A stretch of 64,000 nucleotides of DNA from Methanomicrobiaceae archaeon (lineage in GTDB: Archaea; Halobacteriota; Methanomicrobia; Methanomicrobiales; Methanoculleaceae), in NCBI GenBank assembly GCA_022837745.1, contig JALHIW010000005.1, positions 16,458 to 80,457 on the forward strand. Direction: 5' to 3'. Positions 2,462-53,217 of the stretch are shown in pieces. The notes under the pieces were generated by a model that was given only the letters and a program-made list of their open reading frames with translations, was not told the DNA's origin and did not search any database. Within the stretch, counting starts at the first letter, position 1; each line of letters starts with the position of its first letter. Both the position numbers and the translations under genes were made by a program.

Positions 2462-3099
2462 AGTTTTTCCTCGATTTAGTTGGTGCGGCCGGTCTCCCGG
2501 AGTTCCGGTGAGATGGCCATGTGGAGCACGGTGAACCCGATAATGCCCTTTTCATCAGGCCCCCTGGATACCAGGAAGATTTACCGGGATTTGCCGTGCC
2601 CGGAACGCGGGTCCTCCCCCCTCACGTGGGGCCCCGCTTATTTGGGGGAAACGAAACTTCCGGGCGGAGCACCGGGTGGATCGTTTTAACATAGCTTGTA
2701 ATGGTTTGTATTTAACCATTCCGCATATGTAAGTAGATATATGTTACAACATTTACATTAAGGTTTTTTGATTTATCCTGCGGTGGCGAGGCGGCGAACC
2801 GGGAAGACCCCGACCAAACTGTGCGGGGATGAAAGCGGAAAACCGCCTCCACCTCGCCCCCTACTTTATAGTTTGCAGGCAGTTCACCGGCAGAGGGGGT
2901 CAGGAGCGTTCGTTTCCCGGATGGACCTGCCCGAGATCCGCCGTTCCTCTGCGAGAACCCCCAAAAGCCCCGCCCTGGAGGCGAGAGGTCGTTCACGCCC
3001 TCAGCCAGCCACAGATGATAATATAGAGACGCGTTACGTTTGATACAATAGCGGAGGGCCAGGATACCCCGGTCTTCAAAATTCAGCCCTTGGAGGGTA

Positions 3100-3420
3100 G
3101 AATTATATATTCCAAGGGTCAAACTTATGAGATTGGTTACTTTTAAGCACTATTTGTGGTTATTATCTGAACTATTGTTATTAATATATATTTTAATATT
3201 ATTTAATGCGTATCCAACATACATAACATATTGGTGCGCCGCATAACAGCCGGATCGACCGAAACTCTTTTAAATATTTCAGATAGATTATTCTGGTCTC
3301 AAAAATCCTACTTTTAAAATATCATAATAAGAATAAATTCTACATAGATAATACTTTTTAAGGGTAATATCTACTTTATTTCGCAAATTTTATTAACACA
3401 TCCTCTCTACCTTTATAGTC
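3100..3420. promoter_or_regulatory. AT-rich promoter region upstream of mcrB with several TATA-like boxes
   Basis: Strongly AT-rich tract in a GC-rich genome; TTTAAATA near 3269 and TTTATTAA near 3389. Exact start site not determinable. Confidence 0.5.
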
Positions 3421-3529
3421 CCTTCTGGGACGTGCAGTAGCGGTCTCTGGAGGATCCGGCGCGGATCGTTACCCCGTCGTATCCTGCATGAACAGAACGT
3501 AGTGATCAATGGTAAAAGGACGAAATACT

Positions 3530-4834
3530 ATGGCTAAATACACGGAAACAATCGATCTCTATTCTGATGATGGTAAACTGCTCAAAAGCGGCGTTACCCT
3601 CGACAGAATCAGCCCGCTGGTTAACCCGGCCACAGGTAAGATCATCGACCTGACCAAGAGAACAATCAGCGTCAACCTTGGCGGCATCCAGGATGCGCTC
3701 AGGACAGGAAAACTCGGAAAGGGCAAGATCAAGGGAAGGGAACTCGACCTCCCGATCATGGAGAACAAGGATGCGATCGTCAGCAGGATCAAAGAGATGG
3801 TCCGGGTTGAGGAGGGCGACGACACCGAGATCCTGGAGTTCAATGGGGGTAAACTCCTGCTTGTCCAGGTCCCGACAAAACGCCTGATCAACGCATCCAC
3901 ATATGATGCCGCAATCACCTCGGTCGCAGCCGCGACAACGCTCGCGATCGTTGATCAGTTCAACATCGACGCGTTTAACGCTTCCACCGTCAAAGCGGCC
4001 TGCTGGGGCAGTTATCCTCACACCCAGGACATGGAGGGTGCGCTTGTCACATCCATCCTCACGATCCCGCAGAACAATGAGGGCATCGGCTACGCGCTCC
4101 GCAACATCCCGGTCAACCATGTCGTCATGATGACAAACAAGAACGCTCTCCAGGGTGCAGCGCTATCATCCACCCTCGAGACCGCCGGGATCTTTGAGAT
4201 GGGATCCGCCATTGGGCCGTTTGAGCGCGCCCAGTTGCTTGCCTACGCATACCAAGGCCTGAACGCGAACAACCTGGTCTACGACCTAGTAAAGGCAAAT
4301 GGTGAGAATGGGACGATCGGAACCGTCGTCCAGAGCCTGGTCGAACGCGCCATCGAGGATAAGGTCATCACCCCCGGCAAAAAGGGCGGCTACTTCCAGT
4401 TCTACGACACGAAGGACCCGATGCTCTGGAACGCCTACACCGCTGCAGGAACCATGGCAGCCACCATCGTCAACTGCGGTGCCGGACGGTTCGCACAGGC
4501 GGTCTCGTCGACGCTCCTCTACTTCAACGACCTGCTCGAGCATGAGACCGGTCTCCCGAGCACCGACTACGGCCGTGTGATGGGTACTGCCGTGGGGTTC
4601 TCGTTCTTCAGCCACTCCATCTACGGCGGCGGCGGTCCCGGTATATTCAACGGCAACCATGTCGTGACCAGACACGCGAACGGCGTGGCCATCCCGTGCG
4701 TCGTCGCCGCGATGGCGCTCGATGCCGGAACCCAGATGTTTTCGCCAGAGAGCACCTCGAAACTCTTCGCCGAGACCTACGGTAAGGTCGACGTCTTCAA
4801 CAAGCCGATCCAGCAGATCGCAAACGGAGCCTGA
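3530..4834 (+). CDS. mcrB: Methyl-coenzyme M reductase beta subunit
   Basis: MAKYTETIDLY start; FSFFSHSIYGGGGPGIFNGNHVVTRH signature; 434 aa, normal length. Confidence 0.98.
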   Translation: MAKYTETIDLYSDDGKLLKSGVTLDRISPLVNPATGKIIDLTKRTISVNLGGIQDALRTGKLGKGKIKGRELDLPIMENKDAIVSRIKEMVRVEEGDDTEILEFNGGKLLLVQVPTKRLINASTYDAAITSVAAATTLAIVDQFNIDAFNASTVKAACWGSYPHTQDMEGALVTSILTIPQNNEGIGYALRNIPVNHVVMMTNKNALQGAALSSTLETAGIFEMGSAIGPFERAQLLAYAYQGLNANNLVYDLVKANGENGTIGTVVQSLVERAIEDKVITPGKKGGYFQFYDTKDPMLWNAYTAAGTMAATIVNCGAGRFAQAVSSTLLYFNDLLEHETGLPSTDYGRVMGTAVGFSFFSHSIYGGGGPGIFNGNHVVTRHANGVAIPCVVAAMALDAGTQMFSPESTSKLFAETYGKVDVFNKPIQQIANGA

Positions 4835-44727: not shown

Positions 44728-45468
44728 TTAGTTGCACTGGAGTAAACACCGGTAGATCTCACTGTCAACAGGTGGATCGGTGATCACAGATCCCTCTCCC
44801 CAGATGCGGTCATCGCCGCAAGCGGCGTTCTCACCAATGATACCGATCCAAACGTTGCTCTGGTGGGTCTCATCCAACGCATGATACCACGCGTGACGCA
44901 CCTTATAATTGTTAAAGAGCTTGTTTGCGACGGCCGCCCCATCCTGGGCGTAGTCGTAGCCAACCGTGTCGAACCCGCAAACCAGATGGGCACCATTCAA
45001 AGCCCAATGTGGCCACGCTTTGAATTCTCCGGGGACTTGAGCGGTATGGCACGAATGCAGCAAGATCCATTCCAGATCCTGATCGCCCCAATTACAGTCA
45101 TGAAAGTATACCCAGGCGAGAACAAGCGGGAGACCATCCAGAAGGATGCAACTGTCGTCACCGTGTCCTGCCCAGAAGGCGAGGTCTACGCTATCGACAT
45201 GGGCTGCATCTGAATCCCAGTCCCCTATATAGATGTTACACCCCCACCCGGCATTATCGAACACTTCATAGAAGCCTTCGGCAATGGCGGGTGAGTTTGG
45301 CAGGTTGTTCCCGGTGTTATAGTTCTGTTTGTACTCCACCCCGAATTCCGGGGAGATCGCGTCGGAATCGTCGCCCGTCCCGGCACTGACCGGGGCCATG
45401 CATGCCATCCCCATGAAAGCCGTCACCAGGAGCACAGAGAGCACCCGCGCTCCGATGTTTCTGTTCAT
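44728..45468 (-). CDS. Secreted DUF6345-like protein
   Basis: Signal peptide; VDLAFWAGHG, WGDQDLEW...SC and CGF motifs. Confidence 0.7.
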   Translation of the reverse strand: MNRNIGARVLSVLLVTAFMGMACMAPVSAGTGDDSDAISPEFGVEYKQNYNTGNNLPNSPAIAEGFYEVFDNAGWGCNIYIGDWDSDAAHVDSVDLAFWAGHGDDSCILLDGLPLVLAWVYFHDCNWGDQDLEWILLHSCHTAQVPGEFKAWPHWALNGAHLVCGFDTVGYDYAQDGAAVANKLFNNYKVRHAWYHALDETHQSNVWIGIIGENAACGDDRIWGEGSVITDPPVDSEIYRCLLQCN

Positions 45469-45477
45469 TGTCGTTTT

Positions 45478-45640
45478 CCTCCAACCTTTTCCCGGAGGCA
45501 GGAGAGGCGCACGTTTAAGTACGCAGAACGCTTACGTTCCCTTTGCCTCCGGGCTTGCGGGGCTCTATCATCCGGGCGTCAACCGTGGATGGGGGGACCC
45601 CACGAACTTTTGCAGACGCATCATCGAGGCGCCCCCACAA
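45478..45640 (-). ncRNA. Conserved structured 5' leader, copy A (candidate cis-regulatory RNA)
   Basis: Lies between TATA 45660-45667 and SD; stems covary with copy B. Confidence 0.65.
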
Positions 45641-45905
45641 GGACATGGACGTAAGTTTATTTATAAATTCTGTCCCATTCCTTTACATGTTCTGGGGCTG
45701 TTACCAAAACTGCCGAAAACAAATCCTCCTCCTGAGGTAAAAACACAGGAGATCATTCTTCTTGCGACGGTGTGTGCAACCGTTTCCGGCTGGCAACCCT
45801 CAAGGGACGCGATGAGAAACAGGATACGGGAAAAGTTCCGATACTCAATATGACCAGCGGGAAAAAGAGAGTGTACTTACTCCGCCACAGGAACGAGCTG
45901 GATAC

Positions 45906-46319
45906 CTACCTCCCAAGCGCCCGCACAAACCGCTCCCGGATCTCGGCCGGGGCGAGAGGGATGTTTCCGACCGGTGCGTTCCCGGGATTCAGAACAACGT
46001 GGATGAAGTTCGGTCCCCGGCCCCGGCTCTCCCATGCCTCCTCGAGTTCCTCCTCGTCCTGCACCTTGCACGTATTCCGGATCCCGGCGGCACGGGCGAG
46101 GAGCTCCATGTCCACCAGACCGGAGGCCGGGGTAGGCTGGTTTCCCGTGCTCCCGAAGGCCCCGTTGTCCAGGCAGACGATCGTGAGGTTCTTCGGGGCC
46201 TCGGCGGCCACCACCGGGAGGACGGCGGTCCCGAGCAGGCTCCCATCGCCGTCGAGGACGACGATGATCCCTGCCGTTTTGAGCCGGTTCCTTGATTTTG
46301 GATTCTTGTCTTCTTCCAT
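45906..46319 (-). pseudogene. Chimeric fragment: unrelated N-terminus fused to the C-terminal part of a TPP-binding sulfopyruvate decarboxylase (ComE-like)
   Basis: DGDGSLL...LDNGAFGSTGNQPT TPP motif is preceded by only about 20 non-homologous residues. Confidence 0.7.
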
Positions 46320-46344
46320 TTCGGTTACACCTCCCAACCCGGTC

Positions 46345-46794
46345 TTAGTGGAGCAGAACGCGAGTAGAGTAATATGCACCCTCGTACTCAAGGTATGGCC
46401 GGTCCCCCTCCCTTGCATCGATACCGAACGACTCGAGGAGTACAAGATGTTCTGTACCCGTTACCGGAGCTCTCCCAATCTTGCGTTCGTCGGGATCGTC
46501 ATTGGGGCTGCCCTCCAGTTTCCATGGATGGGGATCTCTGTTATCTCCCCGGATCACCTAATTGAGCGCCGGAAACTGTTCTAAATCCTGTTCGGTCAGG
46601 TGAATGATGGAGGCGTTTTCCAGATGCTCTCCCCAGACTTCCCGCACATCCAGATCCTGCGGAAGGCCATCGACTCCCGTGATCAGGGCAACGAGGGTGG
46701 TACATGTGAGCGCGACCGTCGCGACAAGGAGGGCAGCGCCGATGAACGCAAGGACTCCCATTATAATCAGACGTCTGTTGAATTTCGATTCCAT
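46345..46794 (-). pseudogene. Membrane-anchored hypothetical protein split by an in-frame TAG at 46558-46560
   Basis: ORFs 46558..46794 and 46345..46557 are in one frame, separated only by the amber codon. Confidence 0.7.
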
Positions 46795-46965
46795 ATAACC
46801 GCCCTCATCTCCTTCATCGGATTCTGCCGGGAGGGGATCGTCCTATTTCCATACCAGTGGTTCCCATTAATTTTTCTATCACACGTTTTGCTTCAGATTT
46901 CCGTATCCAAACCTACAGAGCCAGGATAATATCTTTTCAACGGGAAGGGCGGCGCGTTCACGCCC

Positions 46966-47454
46966 TCACAAGCCCGCTGGAGCAGAGATATTCAACTTTC
47001 TTTCGAGTATAGTCGATGTGAGCGAAAACTGCCCTTCTCCAGATTCGGGTGAGGAAAGCGATACGCTCATCAATCCCGAACCCATCTGCCCGGATTCTAG
47101 AGAGGTGCTATATGGTCTCCCAGCAGGATCCCAGACCGTCAGGGTGAAGACCGCTATTTTCTCGTCGTTGGGCTCATCGTTCCGGATGTCCCTCCACGTA
47201 GCTGTGAAGGTGCTCCCTCCGATCCCGGCCTCAACGAAAGGAACCGGGTTAGAAAACGACATGTTTCTCTCGGGGTCGGCAGAAGCATCGCCGAGATAAT
47301 AGGTACCATGGGAGATATTGTCCAGAAAGACAATTCTGCCGCCCAAAGTGGTAGTATTCACCACAGCATCCTCCCTGGCATACGACATCACATACGCCAG
47401 AGCACCGGCAAGACCTACCATCAAGACGATGACACACACTATTTTCCTGTTCAT
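46966..47454 (-). CDS. Secreted/membrane-anchored hypothetical protein
   Basis: N-terminal hydrophobic helix; FTAT...LTVWD motif shared with the upstream gene. Confidence 0.7.
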   Translation of the reverse strand: MNRKIVCVIVLMVGLAGALAYVMSYAREDAVVNTTTLGGRIVFLDNISHGTYYLGDASADPERNMSFSNPVPFVEAGIGGSTFTATWRDIRNDEPNDEKIAVFTLTVWDPAGRPYSTSLESGQMGSGLMSVSLSSPESGEGQFSLTSTILERKLNISAPAGL

Positions 47455-47508
47455 AATGACCACCACTGCGGTTCAAAAATAGTGCATCCATGAAGATGCA
47501 CCCCCTTT

Positions 47509-48012
47509 TCAGGCAAAGTCAAGGTCGCCGATGTAGGGACCCCCAACTGCCATCGTAGTATCGAACCAGTCGTGGGTCTCACACCACAGTTCATACTGAG
47601 CGTCGCCGCTGCCCTGTGAATTGAAGGTCACGCTGATTGTACCACTGGTCGCCCAGTCAACCCTTTTTTCGGTAGTGTGCGCCACGCCCAGGGCGTCCCA
47701 TACCGTCAGACGGTAGATTGCCCCCTGGCCGTCATTGTCCCGGTCGTTATCATTGCTGTACGTCGCCGTGAAGGTGTTCTGCCCTGCCGGAGCAGTGACG
47801 CACCCCACACCGGCCACGCTTGCCGTATTGCCGTCGCCATCGGTAGACATGCTCCCCAGATGTATGGTGGCCAGAATCCCGATGTCGCCCGTATTCTCCT
47901 CTACAGACATTTCAGAATCGGCTTGAGCCGCAGAAACTGCCCCGGCGGATACCGATACAAAGAGTATCAGTACTGCCAGCATTGACAGAAGCCCGTTTCC
48001 TTTCTTCATCAT
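47509..48012 (-). CDS. Secreted hypothetical protein
   Basis: MKK signal peptide, GGAGGT SD and FTAT...LTVWD motif. Confidence 0.8.
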   Translation of the reverse strand: MMKKGNGLLSMLAVLILFVSVSAGAVSAAQADSEMSVEENTGDIGILATIHLGSMSTDGDGNTASVAGVGCVTAPAGQNTFTATYSNDNDRDNDGQGAIYRLTVWDALGVAHTTEKRVDWATSGTISVTFNSQGSGDAQYELWCETHDWFDTTMAVGGPYIGDLDFA

Positions 48013-48017
48013 CAGGT

Positions 48018-48178
48018 ACCTCCGTTTTCGGTTCCCGGAGGCACACGCACACGTTTAAGTCTGCAGAGTGTGTACACTCTCATTGCCTCCAGGCACGCGG
48101 GACGTTCACCCGCCGTTTGGCATATCAGCCGGGTGGACCTCCGCACTGGTGCAGGCGCCGCCTGCGGCACCTACAAGT
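48018..48178 (-). ncRNA. Conserved structured 5' leader, copy B
   Basis: 48050-48093 aligns without gaps to 45510-45553, with compensatory changes. Confidence 0.65.
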
Positions 48179-48210
48179 GTTCACTTGTCAGTTTTGAGAT
48201 AAACCGTTTA

Positions 48211-48228
48211 TGGGACAAACACCAATTC
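48211..48228 (-). promoter_or_regulatory. 18-bp operator, copy 1 (GAATTGGTGTTTGTCCCA on minus strand)
   Basis: 7 nt upstream of the TTTATC box at 48198-48203. Confidence 0.7.
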
Positions 48229-48529
48229 GACACGCGACTTTTCTGGAAAATAGCAGGGATAACGCCCCGGGATCGCCATAGACAACTCCACCTGCATGAG
48301 ACCCTCACAGGAGAATTCCCTCCCGATGGAAAATGCAGGGCTGGTATGAGCAGCATTGTTCCGGGAGATTCGGTACTGGGGTTCCCTCCCCGTGCGTTGC
48401 GCGCAGGCCGTCCCGCTACGCCCGCACCGCACCAATCTCTTCAGATATAGTGGCTCCAGGCACGGTACGGCCGTGTTGCTCCTCAAACACGTTCACCTCC
48501 AGGAAAGGAAGAGGGCAGAGACGAGAATA

Positions 48530-48582: not shown

Positions 48583-49035
48583 ATGGCATCAGCAAAGAGG
48601 AAATGTATGGCTTTTGCCCTGCTGCTCGTCGTATCCTTCCTTGCCGTGCCCCCGGTGGCGGCAACGGAAGGTGACGGCTACACGGTTCGGCCCTCGGGAT
48701 CAGACGACCTGGTGACGACCCTGCGGCTCTCCGACAGTATCGGGCAGGGTGAGACCAACAGGCACCAGTTCTATGTCGGAAGCGGCGTCGCATATCTCGA
48801 AGTATACCTGAACTGGGGATCGACCTCCGATTCCCTGGCGTTGACTATATACGCTCCTTCAGGGAGCAAGATCGGCACGTTCCACGACAACGCCGACGGA
48901 GTTGTAGATGGTAAAATTCATATAGACATTGACCCGGATAGTAGTTATGTAAGCCAGGGGACGTGGGCGTTCGATGTATACGGTGAGAAAGTTTCATCAG
49001 AGAGATCATACACCTTCAACGTCTACCCGTACTAG
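48583..49035 (+). CDS. Secreted stand-alone PPC (pre-peptidase C-terminal)-like domain protein
   Basis: Signal peptide; LNWGSTSDSLALTIYAPSG...GTWAFDVYG beta-sandwich motif. Confidence 0.8.
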   Translation: MASAKRKCMAFALLLVVSFLAVPPVAATEGDGYTVRPSGSDDLVTTLRLSDSIGQGETNRHQFYVGSGVAYLEVYLNWGSTSDSLALTIYAPSGSKIGTFHDNADGVVDGKIHIDIDPDSSYVSQGTWAFDVYGEKVSSERSYTFNVYPY

Positions 49036-49819
49036 GCCAGGCAGACTTCTCCGGCTGTTCACCCTCTCGGTCCTCTTTTTAGTGCTGCTGGTAACGGTTG
49101 CCGATGCCACCGAATACACGGTCCGGCCTTCGAGAAACGTCGGAAAAGAGCCCGGCATGTCCGTATCTGGCGAGAAGGTGCAGGAGATCGACCCGATCCC
49201 GCTCTGGCTCTTCCTGTTGCTGTCTGTTTTCCCCCAGTTGGCAGCGGCCCCGATCGAGACCCTTCTTCCCCTGAAGACCGTCGGATATCTCGGGTACAAG
49301 CGGATCTGCAAAGAAAACGCTCTTGAGAGTCCGCAGAGACGCAAGATCTTGAGATTTGTCAAGAGGAACCCTGGATTGCACTTCAGGGAGATATTGAGGC
49401 GTGTACCTCTGACGCGGGGGACGCTTGATCACCATATGAAAACAATGGAATCCGTGGGCCTCTTAAAGACGGTATCGGGAAGAGGGAGGGTTCATTATTT
49501 CGTCGCAGATTCATCATATTCGGCCGAGGAAGAGATCCTTATCACCGTACTGAGGAATGAGAGTCTGCGGAGAATTATAACAGAGATCTATCTCAATCAA
49601 GGTGCATGCAACGAAGAAATTGCAGAAGACGTCGGACTATCCGGAGCTACAGTTTATGAACATCTACGATACCTGAAAGATCTGGGTGTTGTGATCGCTG
49701 AGAGGGACGGGCGGTGTGTGCGGTATACCCTCGCCGAGAGTTATTCTCGTATACTGGCGGGTATGCGGATCATTATACCGAACCGGCCCGGAATGCGGCT
49801 GATCCCGCCGGATAGATAG
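48974..49819 (+). CDS. Membrane-anchored tandem winged-helix transcriptional regulator
   Basis: Two hydrophobic segments, then NPGLHFREILR...RGTLDHH and LSGATVYEHLRYL; start uncertain. Confidence 0.8.
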   Translation: MYTVRKFHQRDHTPSTSTRTRPGRLLRLFTLSVLFLVLLVTVADATEYTVRPSRNVGKEPGMSVSGEKVQEIDPIPLWLFLLLSVFPQLAAAPIETLLPLKTVGYLGYKRICKENALESPQRRKILRFVKRNPGLHFREILRRVPLTRGTLDHHMKTMESVGLLKTVSGRGRVHYFVADSSYSAEEEILITVLRNESLRRIITEIYLNQGACNEEIAEDVGLSGATVYEHLRYLKDLGVVIAERDGRCVRYTLAESYSRILAGMRIIIPNRPGMRLIPPDR

Positions 49820-50074: not shown

Positions 50075-50215
50075 TCGGGGAAGCCGCACGCGGTATCCCG
50101 AGGGGGCCGGGTGTCTCGATTGGCGTCGGATCCCGGACTCCCACCGCGTGCCCGGAGGGCAATAGGGCTGTTGGCTGTCATCGGGGATAGCCGTTGTGGT
50201 TCTGCGGTCTCCCAG
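50075..50215 (+). ncRNA. Diverged copy C of the structured leader
   Basis: CCGCGTGCCCGGAGGGCAAT at 50144-50163 nearly matches copy B CCGCGTGCCTGGAGGCAAT; similar upstream stems. Confidence 0.45.
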
Positions 50216-50241: not shown

Positions 50242-51034
50242 ATGAAGATGAAATTGATTGGAAAGATATTTCCCGCTCTTACGTTAGCACTCATGTGCGG
50301 TGCTCTCGTTTCGCTTGTCGGGGCATGGGAGATAGACCCTATTAATGAACCGATTGCTGCGAATATCTCGGTCGATGATGGTATGCATCCTTTGTGGACG
50401 GGATACCCATACCCAGGTATTGGGGATGCTGACGTTCATAACGACTTGGCAAAGGTTGCAGGGCTAAAGATGGGACTTCCAGTTGAGTACTACAGTTGGC
50501 TGAGTAAACTGGCAGGACAACCAGATGATCCTAACTTCGATGACTATACGCTCCATCCGAGTGAAACGCACTATGGCTCACACTCTTCCTTTCATGAAGA
50601 ACGCCCCGGAGGTTGCAGAGTACTATGCGAATAAAGCAAGGGACTACATCAGAAATGGTGACCCTAACAACGGGTATATTCAGTTGGCGTATGCCATGCA
50701 TTTCATGTCGGATATGGGCTGCCCGTATCATTACACCTACGAAGGTCTAGCCAATCATCCAAAATATGAAGGATTTGTCGGGGACAATTGGCATACCGGG
50801 CATTATTTTTACAGAGATATCTTAGATGCCGATTATTATTACTCGATATCTGATGTAAGCGATGCTGCAAACAATCTCGCAAACGCTGCACATCAGTACC
50901 AGAGTTATTTTGATAGTCAGATCTGGCACAACTCAGACTGGAAAATCGATCCGAAACTCATTGAAGATACAAGGACTGTCCTTATATATACCGAAAGGTA
51001 CGATCGAGGCCTTGTCGATTATGTAAACAGATAG
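50242..51034 (+). pseudogene. Secreted Zn-dependent phospholipase C / S1-P1 nuclease family protein, frameshifted near 50580
   Basis: Signal peptide and W...H...D...HY in the first frame; AMHFMSDMGCPYH...HPKYE in the second frame. Confidence 0.75.
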
Positions 51035-53145: not shown

Positions 53146-53190
53146 TATTACAAGTATTATAGGTATTATAGGTATTACAAGTAATACAGA
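53146..53190 (+). repeat. Five tandem 9-bp units (TATTACAAG, TATTATAGG x2, TATTACAAG, TAATACAGA)
   Basis: Read directly; lies immediately upstream of the 47-aa ORF. Confidence 0.8.
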
Positions 53191-53217
53191 TACGGATACT
53201 ACAGGGAAGGGATCAAC

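Follow-up and report, generated by a model that had tools for sequence, protein, structure and literature searches.

A candidate family of structured 5' leaders shared by unrelated secreted-protein genes of Methanoculleus and its close relatives

The window analysed here is a stretch of 64,000 nucleotides (nt) from a Methanomicrobiaceae archaeon (contig JALHIW010000005.1 of assembly GCA_022837745.1, positions 16,458 to 80,457 of the forward strand). Two genes of its minus strand that code for secreted proteins, at 44728..45468 and 47509..48012, are preceded by copies A and B of one leader, whose features argue for a new family of structured 5' untranslated leaders that act in cis and are restricted to one lineage. 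The original prediction, made from the letters of the window, quoted strings from both copies, and these are found on the minus strand. The ungapped core shared by the copies spans 55 nt at 75% identity according to a repeat finder (45507-45561 versus 48047-48101). A degenerate pattern derived from this core occurs at two places in the window, A and B, with 0 expected in shuffled sequences. The proteins behind the two copies are unrelated, as had been claimed (BLASTP E = 1.0). The suspicion that the leader belongs to no known RNA family was borne out: nothing in the whole window matches Rfam 15 at gathering thresholds, and at E <= 10 the sole match over 45300-48500 is a chance small nucleolar RNA elsewhere in that stretch. 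A literature search found no prior description of the leader family.

The elements of the leader follow the order hairpin H1, hairpin H2, P1 5' strand (CCCGGAGGCA), junction J1/2, P2, P3, the pyrimidine-rich junction J3/1 and P1 3' strand (UGCCUCCGGG). Past P1 come an A-rich linker of variable length, the Shine-Dalgarno (SD) sequence GGAGG, 5-8 nt and the ATG. In the minimum-energy fold of copies A and B the two upstream hairpins are followed by the 10-base-pair (bp) P1, which closes P2 and P3 in a three-way junction (folding z-scores of -2.3 and -3.7). Copy A matches the covariance model at 45477-45637 with 140.2 bits (E = 8e-33). Its whole 5' leader, as delimited by covariance model and fold, would run from the predicted transcription start to the base before the ATG (45469..45638, minus strand, as for all features of A and B). 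H1, the hairpin at the predicted 5' end of the transcript, is found at 45613..45635, the long irregular hairpin H2 (GGGG...CAUCC / GGAUG...CCCC) at 45556..45606 and the predicted P1-closed domain at 45491..45553. The latter is built of the P1 5' strand (45544-45553), P2 (45525-45540), P3 (45507-45524), J3/1 (CUCUCC, 45501-45506) and the P1 3' strand (45491-45500). The SD GGAGGA (45477..45482) lies 8 nt before the ATG at 45466-45468. Upstream of H1 the TATA box TTTATAAA (45660..45667) has an A-rich stretch in front that resembles a B recognition element (BRE).

Copy B matches the model at 48018-48175 with 129.3 bits (E = 4e-30), and its predicted whole leader, delimited in the same way, covers 48013..48175. 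It is composed of H1 (48152-48173), H2 (48096-48145), the P1 strands (5' 48084-48093; 3' 48034-48043), P2 (48065-48080), P3 (48047-48064) and J3/1 (48044-48046), with the SD GGAGGU at 48018-48023 and the TATA box TTTATCTC at 48196..48203. Substitutions between the two copies had been said to preserve pairing. This is correct for P2, where GAACG/CGUUC in A and GAGUG/CACUC in B differ by two compensatory pairs, and for H2, where CAUCC/GGAUG and CACCC/GGGUG differ by one. For P3 the statement is right in part: a compensatory change turns one G-C pair into A-U, but a second pair, U-G in A, becomes a G.G mismatch in B. P1 had been counted as paired at 10/10 positions in A and 9/10 in B; the former count stands, while B also reaches 10/10 when its U-G wobble is included.

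The leader has a large number of homologs in a narrow set of organisms. A pattern scan of one genome per species identified 25 stretches in genome contigs, 19 of them in methanogen records that are mostly from Methanoculleus and otherwise from a Methanomicrobiaceae metagenome-assembled genome (MAG), a Methanocorpusculaceae MAG and Methanobacteriota MAGs. Five of the remaining six are chance bacterial matches; the sixth is an identical Methanoculleus-type sequence from a contig assigned to Oscillospiraceae. Both the leader and the 315-amino-acid (aa) gene on that contig (JBMNQH010000051.1, locus L021) have identical counterparts in Methanoculleus formosensis and M. methanifontis; the contig is most likely archaeal and mis-binned. 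A looser scan of metagenomes listed at least 120 matches. Searches with the covariance model added copies, in the loci already identified, that had escaped the pattern scan, bringing the copies with E < 1e-3 to at least 151 + 59, about 210 in about 136 loci of Methanoculleus and close relatives. Among the first 150 copies 131 are distinct. The copies are clustered, with several per genome and often in tandem arrays of genes in the same orientation; five are found on one contig of about 13.4 kb (L121), and k-mer depth in DNA runs indicates about 4-6 near-identical leader cores per genome. Viral contigs searched with the pattern gave 0 matches. Note that a signal peptide and leader-like sequence discerned by eye in Methanogenium sp. 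MK-MG, which may be a very diverged relative, reaches 5.2 bits and was not counted as a member.

Many copies are pseudogenised, truncated or carry an insertion sequence (IS). An IS5-like element of about 1.05 kb truncates at least four different copies at the same point (+/- 1 nt) and in either orientation, the insertion point being where J3/1 meets the P1 3' strand (L037:10749-11799, L062, L089 from 3118, L052:1051-2107, L007 from 3646). This element, which codes for a 333-aa DDE transposase, is bounded by inverted repeats GTGTTG[AC]ATAA and has further copies elsewhere in the islands; it may prefer the leader as a target site. A different accident is seen in M. chikugoensis (L024:7171-7392), where GAACGUCCCGCGCGCCCGGAGGCAAAGGG is duplicated internally around a 32-nt insert before a truncated ORF (open reading frame) of 40 aa, marking a decaying copy.

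Covariation among homologs, which the proposal of selection on RNA structure called for, is present in model-fitted and MAFFT alignments and is clearest in H1 and P2. In the model-fitted alignment 88.1% of cells are paired, compared with 35-48% for slid partners, and all five measures lie above those of 500 shuffles. The independent MAFFT alignment of 100 distinct copies gives 88.0% paired versus 35-50% slid, and 168 cells changed on both sides versus 78 +/- 12 in shuffles. Family-wide, double changes affect 6/9 pairs of H1 and, in P2, 4/5 pairs (MAFFT) or 5/5 (model-fitted), with alternative pair types in these helices such as GC:52/AU:30/GU:16 and UA:36/CG:29 (MAFFT). Covariation in H2 is weaker: compensatory changes (AU:88/CG:35, UA:82/GU:27) appear in the model-fitted alignment and receive weaker support in MAFFT. 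P1 is invariant in sequence and displays zero covariation, and the changes in P3 are almost solely wobble, also without covariation. G-U pairs are abundant and would be A.C mismatches on the opposite strand. The structure is thus specific to the sense strand, which points to selection at the RNA level and argues against a DNA palindrome. Copies within one genome differ in sequence yet keep the pairing.

Two statements on invariant residues do not extend to the family. The UUAAAC loop described as invariant also occurs as UUGAAG, UUGAAU, UUAAAU and UUGUAG, and J3/1 varies between CUCUCC, UCCGUC and GUG. More generally, loops and junctions vary, and the idea of invariant single-stranded residues is not borne out family-wide; the strongest conservation is that of the P1 helix, and the invariant residues are mostly inside P1 plus the adjacent CAA. 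Two further candidates were rejected. Inspection of H2 and the junctions for a kink-turn (K-turn) or L7Ae element, with no dedicated search, found no GA in the strand facing GGAUGA and hence no partner for the tandem sheared G.A pairs of a K-turn in H2. An upstream ORF starting at the AUG of J1/2 would have just 3 codons, and its AUG is missing in about half of the copies. RNAalifold applied across the translation start yielded no structure.

The insert closed by P1 can adopt two competing folds. Reading 5' to 3', P2 supplies segments a (5' strand), l (loop) and b (3' strand), P3 supplies c (5' strand), m (loop) and d (3' strand), and J3/1 is segment e. In fold X, a:b form P2 and c:d form P3, which gives the three-way junction. 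Fold Y, which is the minimum-energy structure of the insert in several copies, is one long hairpin atop P1 made of l:d, b:m and a:e. The P2 3' strand and the P3 loop co-vary (GUU/AAC, AUUC/GAAU, CUUC/GAAG), and pair 223-287 of fold Y is found as CG:32/UA:32. In partner-permutation tests, which ignore kinship among the sequences, native partners outperformed permuted ones for a:b (0/300), b:m (0/300) and l:d (1/300) and were not better for c:d (298/300), a:e (146/300) and two negative controls. Segment b covaries with two mutually exclusive partners. Constrained folding of 105 copies favours X by >2 kcal/mol in 15, which include A and B, places the two folds within 2 kcal/mol of each other in 31, and favours Y by >2 kcal/mol in 59. 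One copy predicted to prefer Y is L041:11655-11812. The three-way junction originally proposed therefore describes A and B correctly but does not hold for the family as a whole.

The position of the leader relative to promoter and gene is fixed. Among the aligned hits, 134/150 have an ORF in the same orientation within a few bases, and the TATA box is at a constant distance, so that placement is not random. In 114 distinct upstream regions a block of 83-98% A/T is found at -29 to -24 from the first pair of H1, preceded by an A-rich BRE-like stretch, and the spacing between TATA box and H1 is identical in four promoter types that otherwise differ. In Archaea, transcription starts about 26 nt downstream of the TATA box. 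With the TATA box at a fixed distance, this rule would place the start at H1 +/- 3 nt, which by promoter geometry corresponds to about 45638 (+/- 3) for copy A and about 48175 for copy B. A palindrome characteristic of the promoter type lies upstream of the TATA box, and these palindromes are candidate regulator sites: GTTCGG-N6-CCGAAC in type 1, TTTTCYRGAAAA in type 3, which includes copy B (~48225-48270), and ACGTGTA[AG]A in type 2 and in type 4, to which copy A belongs. Within each subfamily, conservation also covers the promoter region. Contigs assembled from public RNA runs break at the leader repeat.

The unit shared by unrelated genes is longer than originally described. A leader common to them does exist, but the block conserved family-wide also takes in about 28 first codons, which code for the signal peptide. 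Compared pairwise, 60 distinct copies have a mean identity of 0.34-0.38 in the promoter and 0.66 over the leader, with 0.86-0.88 in the P1 strands and 0.77 in P3. The value is 0.78 for codons 1-13 and 0.64 for codons 14-28, and falls to 0.28, the random level, in the mature protein. Third positions of codons 3-13 are 76-94% conserved. Judged from these sequence profiles, the leader is the core of an expression-and-secretion cassette of about 250 nt formed by leader, SD and about 28 signal-peptide codons. Signal-peptide-like amino termini are found in 98/119 distinct downstream ORFs, most of which conform to the Sec-type consensus MNGKIGMRAFSxLLAVLLVSV..VPAVSA. A search for further cassette proteins with the signal-peptide profile returned short fragments only. 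After removal of the signal peptide the mature proteins fall into at least 26 clusters without BLAST relation. The largest is the M12 (Reprolysin_5) metalloprotease family and another has a transglutaminase-core domain; clusters other than these two and DUF6345 (see below) have no Pfam match. The downstream genes have a secretion signal in common and no metabolic or transport theme. Such an architecture would allow new secreted proteins to be recruited by swapping of the 5' module.

The gene behind copy A (44728..45468, minus strand) codes for a secreted DUF6345 protein (Pfam E = 1.7e-29) whose signal peptide corresponds to codons 1-30 (45379-45468). A GHG...C motif is invariant among its homologs, including one from Methanosarcina. 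The AlphaFold2 model (predicted local distance difference test score, pLDDT, 73.7) has SAVED-CHAT, caspases and a secreted C11 protease as top Foldseek matches, which suggests a secreted cysteine protease of caspase/CHAT-like (clan CD) fold. A DUF6345 homolog of Methanosarcina acetivorans has no leader, and another, at L147, has a leader of 101.6 bits although its signal peptide is different; by this comparison leader and gene are not inherited together. At L147:2786-2942 the called gene (2884-3714, P0033) runs upstream into the leader and gains a spurious amino-terminal extension, so database proteins of the DUF6345 family may carry translated leader sequence. Copy B precedes the gene of a 167-aa secreted protein with no Pfam match (47509..48012, minus strand). 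A leaderless paralogue of that protein is encoded at 46966-47466 on the same strand (BLASTP E = 3e-16), and the two genes probably form one operon.

Copies A and B are intact. A third copy, C, had been named. It is present, but solely as a degenerate relic at 50076..50201 on the plus strand (20.7 bits, E = 0.003) that keeps the TATA box, H1, H2 and GCCCGGAGGGCAA but no longer has P2, P3 or the P1 3' strand. The gene behind it (50242-51034, plus strand) matches a leader-associated family of secreted proteins of 330-390 aa in two frames, and is to be read as either a frameshifted pseudogene or a sequencing error. Between B and C the plus strand codes for a secreted PPC-domain protein (48583-49035) and a membrane-anchored double winged-helix regulator similar to HVO_0163_N (48974-49819), both assigned by Pfam. 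This pair (48583..49819) is divergently transcribed, and homologous pairs adjoin leader genes in at least 20 other loci (L074, L060, L024, L036, L038, L104, L050 and L147 among them), mostly in divergent orientation. From this neighbourhood the double winged-helix protein is likely a transcription regulator of the secreted-protein islands, and is put forward as a candidate for that role. The DUF6345 gene of Methanosarcina acetivorans likewise adjoins a helix-turn-helix (HTH) regulator.

The island also holds remnants. The minus-strand region 46345-46794 has 62% identity over 146 aa to a 147-aa membrane protein that carries a leader elsewhere (L030, L046); the copy in the window has an in-frame TAG stop and no leader. 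Between A and B the ORF 45906-46445 (minus strand) matches the carboxyl-terminal cofactor-binding domain of thiamine pyrophosphate (TPP) enzymes alone (residues 60-149), and is possibly a gene fragment. Further along, at 53146-53192, 9-nt tandem units (TATTACAAG / TATTATAGG) make up four overlapping 20-nt copies in G+C-rich surroundings.

The reading favoured here, to which a probability of roughly 0.45 is given, is that the leader is a cis-acting 5' untranslated region (UTR) with a protective 5' part, H1 and H2, and a two-state operator, the P1 domain, which a trans-acting factor reads. Transcription would begin at or within about 3 nt of H1, and the 5'-terminal H1, together with H2, would shield the mRNA against decay that depends on the 5' end. 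As an operator, the P1-closed domain would have the mutually exclusive folds X and Y, and a trans-acting factor would read or shift their balance, thereby acting on translation initiation or on the mRNA life of the set of secreted proteins. The factor is most likely a protein, since what is best conserved is the sequence of a 10-bp helix and the adjacent CAA. Transcription would probably be controlled separately by the neighbouring PPC/HTH pair through the palindromes upstream of the TATA box. The original prediction had left the choice between a riboswitch and a protein-binding leader; a leader that binds a protein or other factor, or a conformational operator, is the better fit, and the riboswitch stays a minority reading.

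Several results weigh against the favoured reading. Under the stricter measures applied to the MAFFT alignment the family does not exceed shuffled controls, with 16 pairs changed on both sides versus 14.4 shuffled (125/500 shuffles reach 16) and 65 further pair types versus 65.4, so across the family covariation is mainly that of H1 and P2. Run de novo on the 100 MAFFT-aligned copies, RNAalifold did not recover the model and gave mostly a different, implausible structure; the model was then tested by explicit pair counts. The blindness of the permutation tests to kinship also counts here. The energy difference X minus Y extends from -7 to +16 kcal/mol, a range too broad for a finely balanced switch in each copy, and the two folds might be subfamily-specific structures instead of a switch. 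As 8 of the 10 bp of P1 are G-C, a switch that opens P1 to free its CCUCC strand is thermodynamically unlikely; capture of the SD by that strand was rejected, since P1 would be exchanged for an alternative of about 5 bp. The SD itself is outside all conserved helices, in the poorly conserved linker past P1. A direct link to the SD would be appealing, since both P1 strands, J3/1 and the coding region at +30 contain GGAGG-like or CUCC-like elements, and RNAfold pairs the SD with the coding-region UUCUCC at +30 in many copies. Sequestration of the SD by this element was nevertheless dismissed, as there is no covariation and native pairing (-8.57 kcal/mol) is not better than permuted (-8.78 kcal/mol).

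Other explanations account for part of these data. The leader might be a constitutive mRNA stabiliser and translation enhancer that ensures, with no switching, long-lived and well-translated mRNAs for abundant exported proteins. This is a possible but doubtful account. Whatever the promoter type, H1 would lie at the predicted 5' end, the structure of H1 and H2 persists despite sequence variation, as a purely structural role predicts, and the downstream genes encode exported proteins; it leaves unexplained that sequence conservation in the P1 domain is far above that in H1 and H2, that the P2 3' strand covaries with two partners and that silent positions of the first 13 codons are constrained. 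In a metabolite or second-messenger riboswitch the P1 domain would be the aptamer, and the ligand would pick the fold and so control translation of the secreted-protein regulon. The conserved structure directly upstream of the SD, its two exclusive covarying folds, its many copies before functionally diverse genes and the lack of a match to any known RNA class agree with this proposal. It is unlikely, since few unpaired nucleotides are invariant and the constant part is a helix, no metabolic or transport theme unites the associated genes, P1 is far stabler than a typical riboswitch P1, the predicted fold balance varies by >20 kcal/mol among copies, and the SD is in no conserved helix. Nor is there a U-tract terminator between element and SD, and a transcription attenuator was rejected for the same want of a U-run. 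A riboswitch-like sensor, in which a small signal or a factor reporting the state of secretion or stress chooses the fold and switches on a regulon of secreted proteases and exoproteins, is rather unlikely; if true, it would be the first regulon-wide RNA switch tied to secretion in Archaea. An RNA thermometer or other physical sensor, in which temperature would shift X/Y or melt the SD pairing, is very improbable. The folds have similar predicted energies in about 30% of copies, and J3/1 CUCUCC as well as the +30 UUCUCC can pair with the SD in predictions, but the SD does not covary with these partners, and the helices are G+C-rich and stable, unlike those of ROSE or fourU.

A further group of explanations dispenses with a 5' UTR function. 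The promoter, leader and signal-peptide module may have been duplicated, recombined and gene-converted without any role for its RNA, the folds being incidental. Conservation at silent codon positions and, within subfamilies, in the promoter would fit, as would the frequent decay of copies and the tandem arrays, which favour recombination. This is improbable in view of the compensatory and G-U changes that keep the helices, against which slid controls pair just 35-50%, of the same H1 spacing in four promoter types, of an identity that peaks in P1 and P3 and is not uniform over the block, and of copies in one genome that differ yet keep pairing. It is hardly credible that the element is a separate small RNA gene or the source of a stable small RNA processed from the 5' UTR and acting in trans. 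It has its own promoter and a compact stable structure, and contigs of RNA runs show a depth spike over 45526-45633; the same 4-6-fold spike in DNA runs identifies this as an effect of copy number and not of RNA accumulation. A short, constant distance also separates the element from a co-oriented ORF, no terminator-like U-run separates it from the SD, and RNA contigs span the coding region and the leader (run X29: 45300-45539). The chance of a mobile or recombination DNA element, such as a miniature inverted-repeat transposable element, a repetitive extragenic palindrome or an integron attC-like site, is close to negligible. The copy number, the inverted repeat CCCGGAGGCA...TGCCTCCGGG and the arrays of genes in the same orientation recall such elements, but orientation to the gene and the position from TATA box to ATG are constant, the conserved block extends into coding sequence, the G-U pairs are strand-specific and the pattern search found none on viral contigs. 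Moreover, attC sites lie 3' of promoterless cassettes, whereas each leader copy is 5' of a gene with its own promoter; integrases were not systematically searched.

If the leader is regulatory, it would define a co-controlled secretome that consists mostly of proteins of unknown function and provide a handle on post-transcriptional control in methanogens. It could likewise supply a portable promoter-leader-signal-peptide cassette for expression of secreted proteins in these organisms. The methanogens that carry it dominate anaerobic digesters. To our knowledge few cis-regulatory RNA structures have been described in Archaea, and none of them is tied to protein export.

The leader has features of several known systems. 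Like the purine and TPP riboswitches, whose junctions are closed by a P1, it is a covarying 5' UTR structure of about 60-160 nt directly upstream of the SD in which P1 closes a multi-helix domain with mutually exclusive pairings. Unlike in these, the conserved core is the sequence of P1 and not the junction nucleotides, P1 is very stable, the genes share a secretion signal and not a pathway, and Rfam has no match. In bacteria the c-di-GMP-I/II and c-di-AMP ydaO riboswitches precede genes for secreted proteases, adhesins and wall hydrolases. The presence of one RNA element before many diverse genes of extracellular proteins is thus common to both, by analogy alone, as there is no match in sequence or structure.

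Stabilising 5' UTRs are known from E. coli ompA, Lactobacillus slpA and several methanogen genes. The leader resembles the ompA/slpA type in that a stem-loop would be at the very 5' end (here the predicted start) of a long leader before the gene of an exported protein, and in that hairpins, H1 and H2 in the leader, are kept while sequence varies. It differs in being one family found before at least 26 unrelated genes and in adding a domain of invariant sequence and a covarying alternative fold.

A conserved UTR and signal peptide followed by a divergent mature part is characteristic of the vsp/vlp lipoproteins of Mycoplasma and of cone-snail toxins. The secreted salivary gland proteins of the Hessian fly also combine a conserved 5' UTR and signal peptide with divergent mature proteins (PMC2955719). 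In all these families, as in the one described here, conservation peaks in leader and signal peptide and collapses at the mature protein, and the genes are clustered. Their mature parts are homologous though diversifying, while the leader-associated proteins have unrelated folds; the methanogen leader, moreover, displays RNA covariation, which is not known from theirs. We know of no earlier case of this kind, a conserved UTR coupled to a signal peptide, in Archaea.

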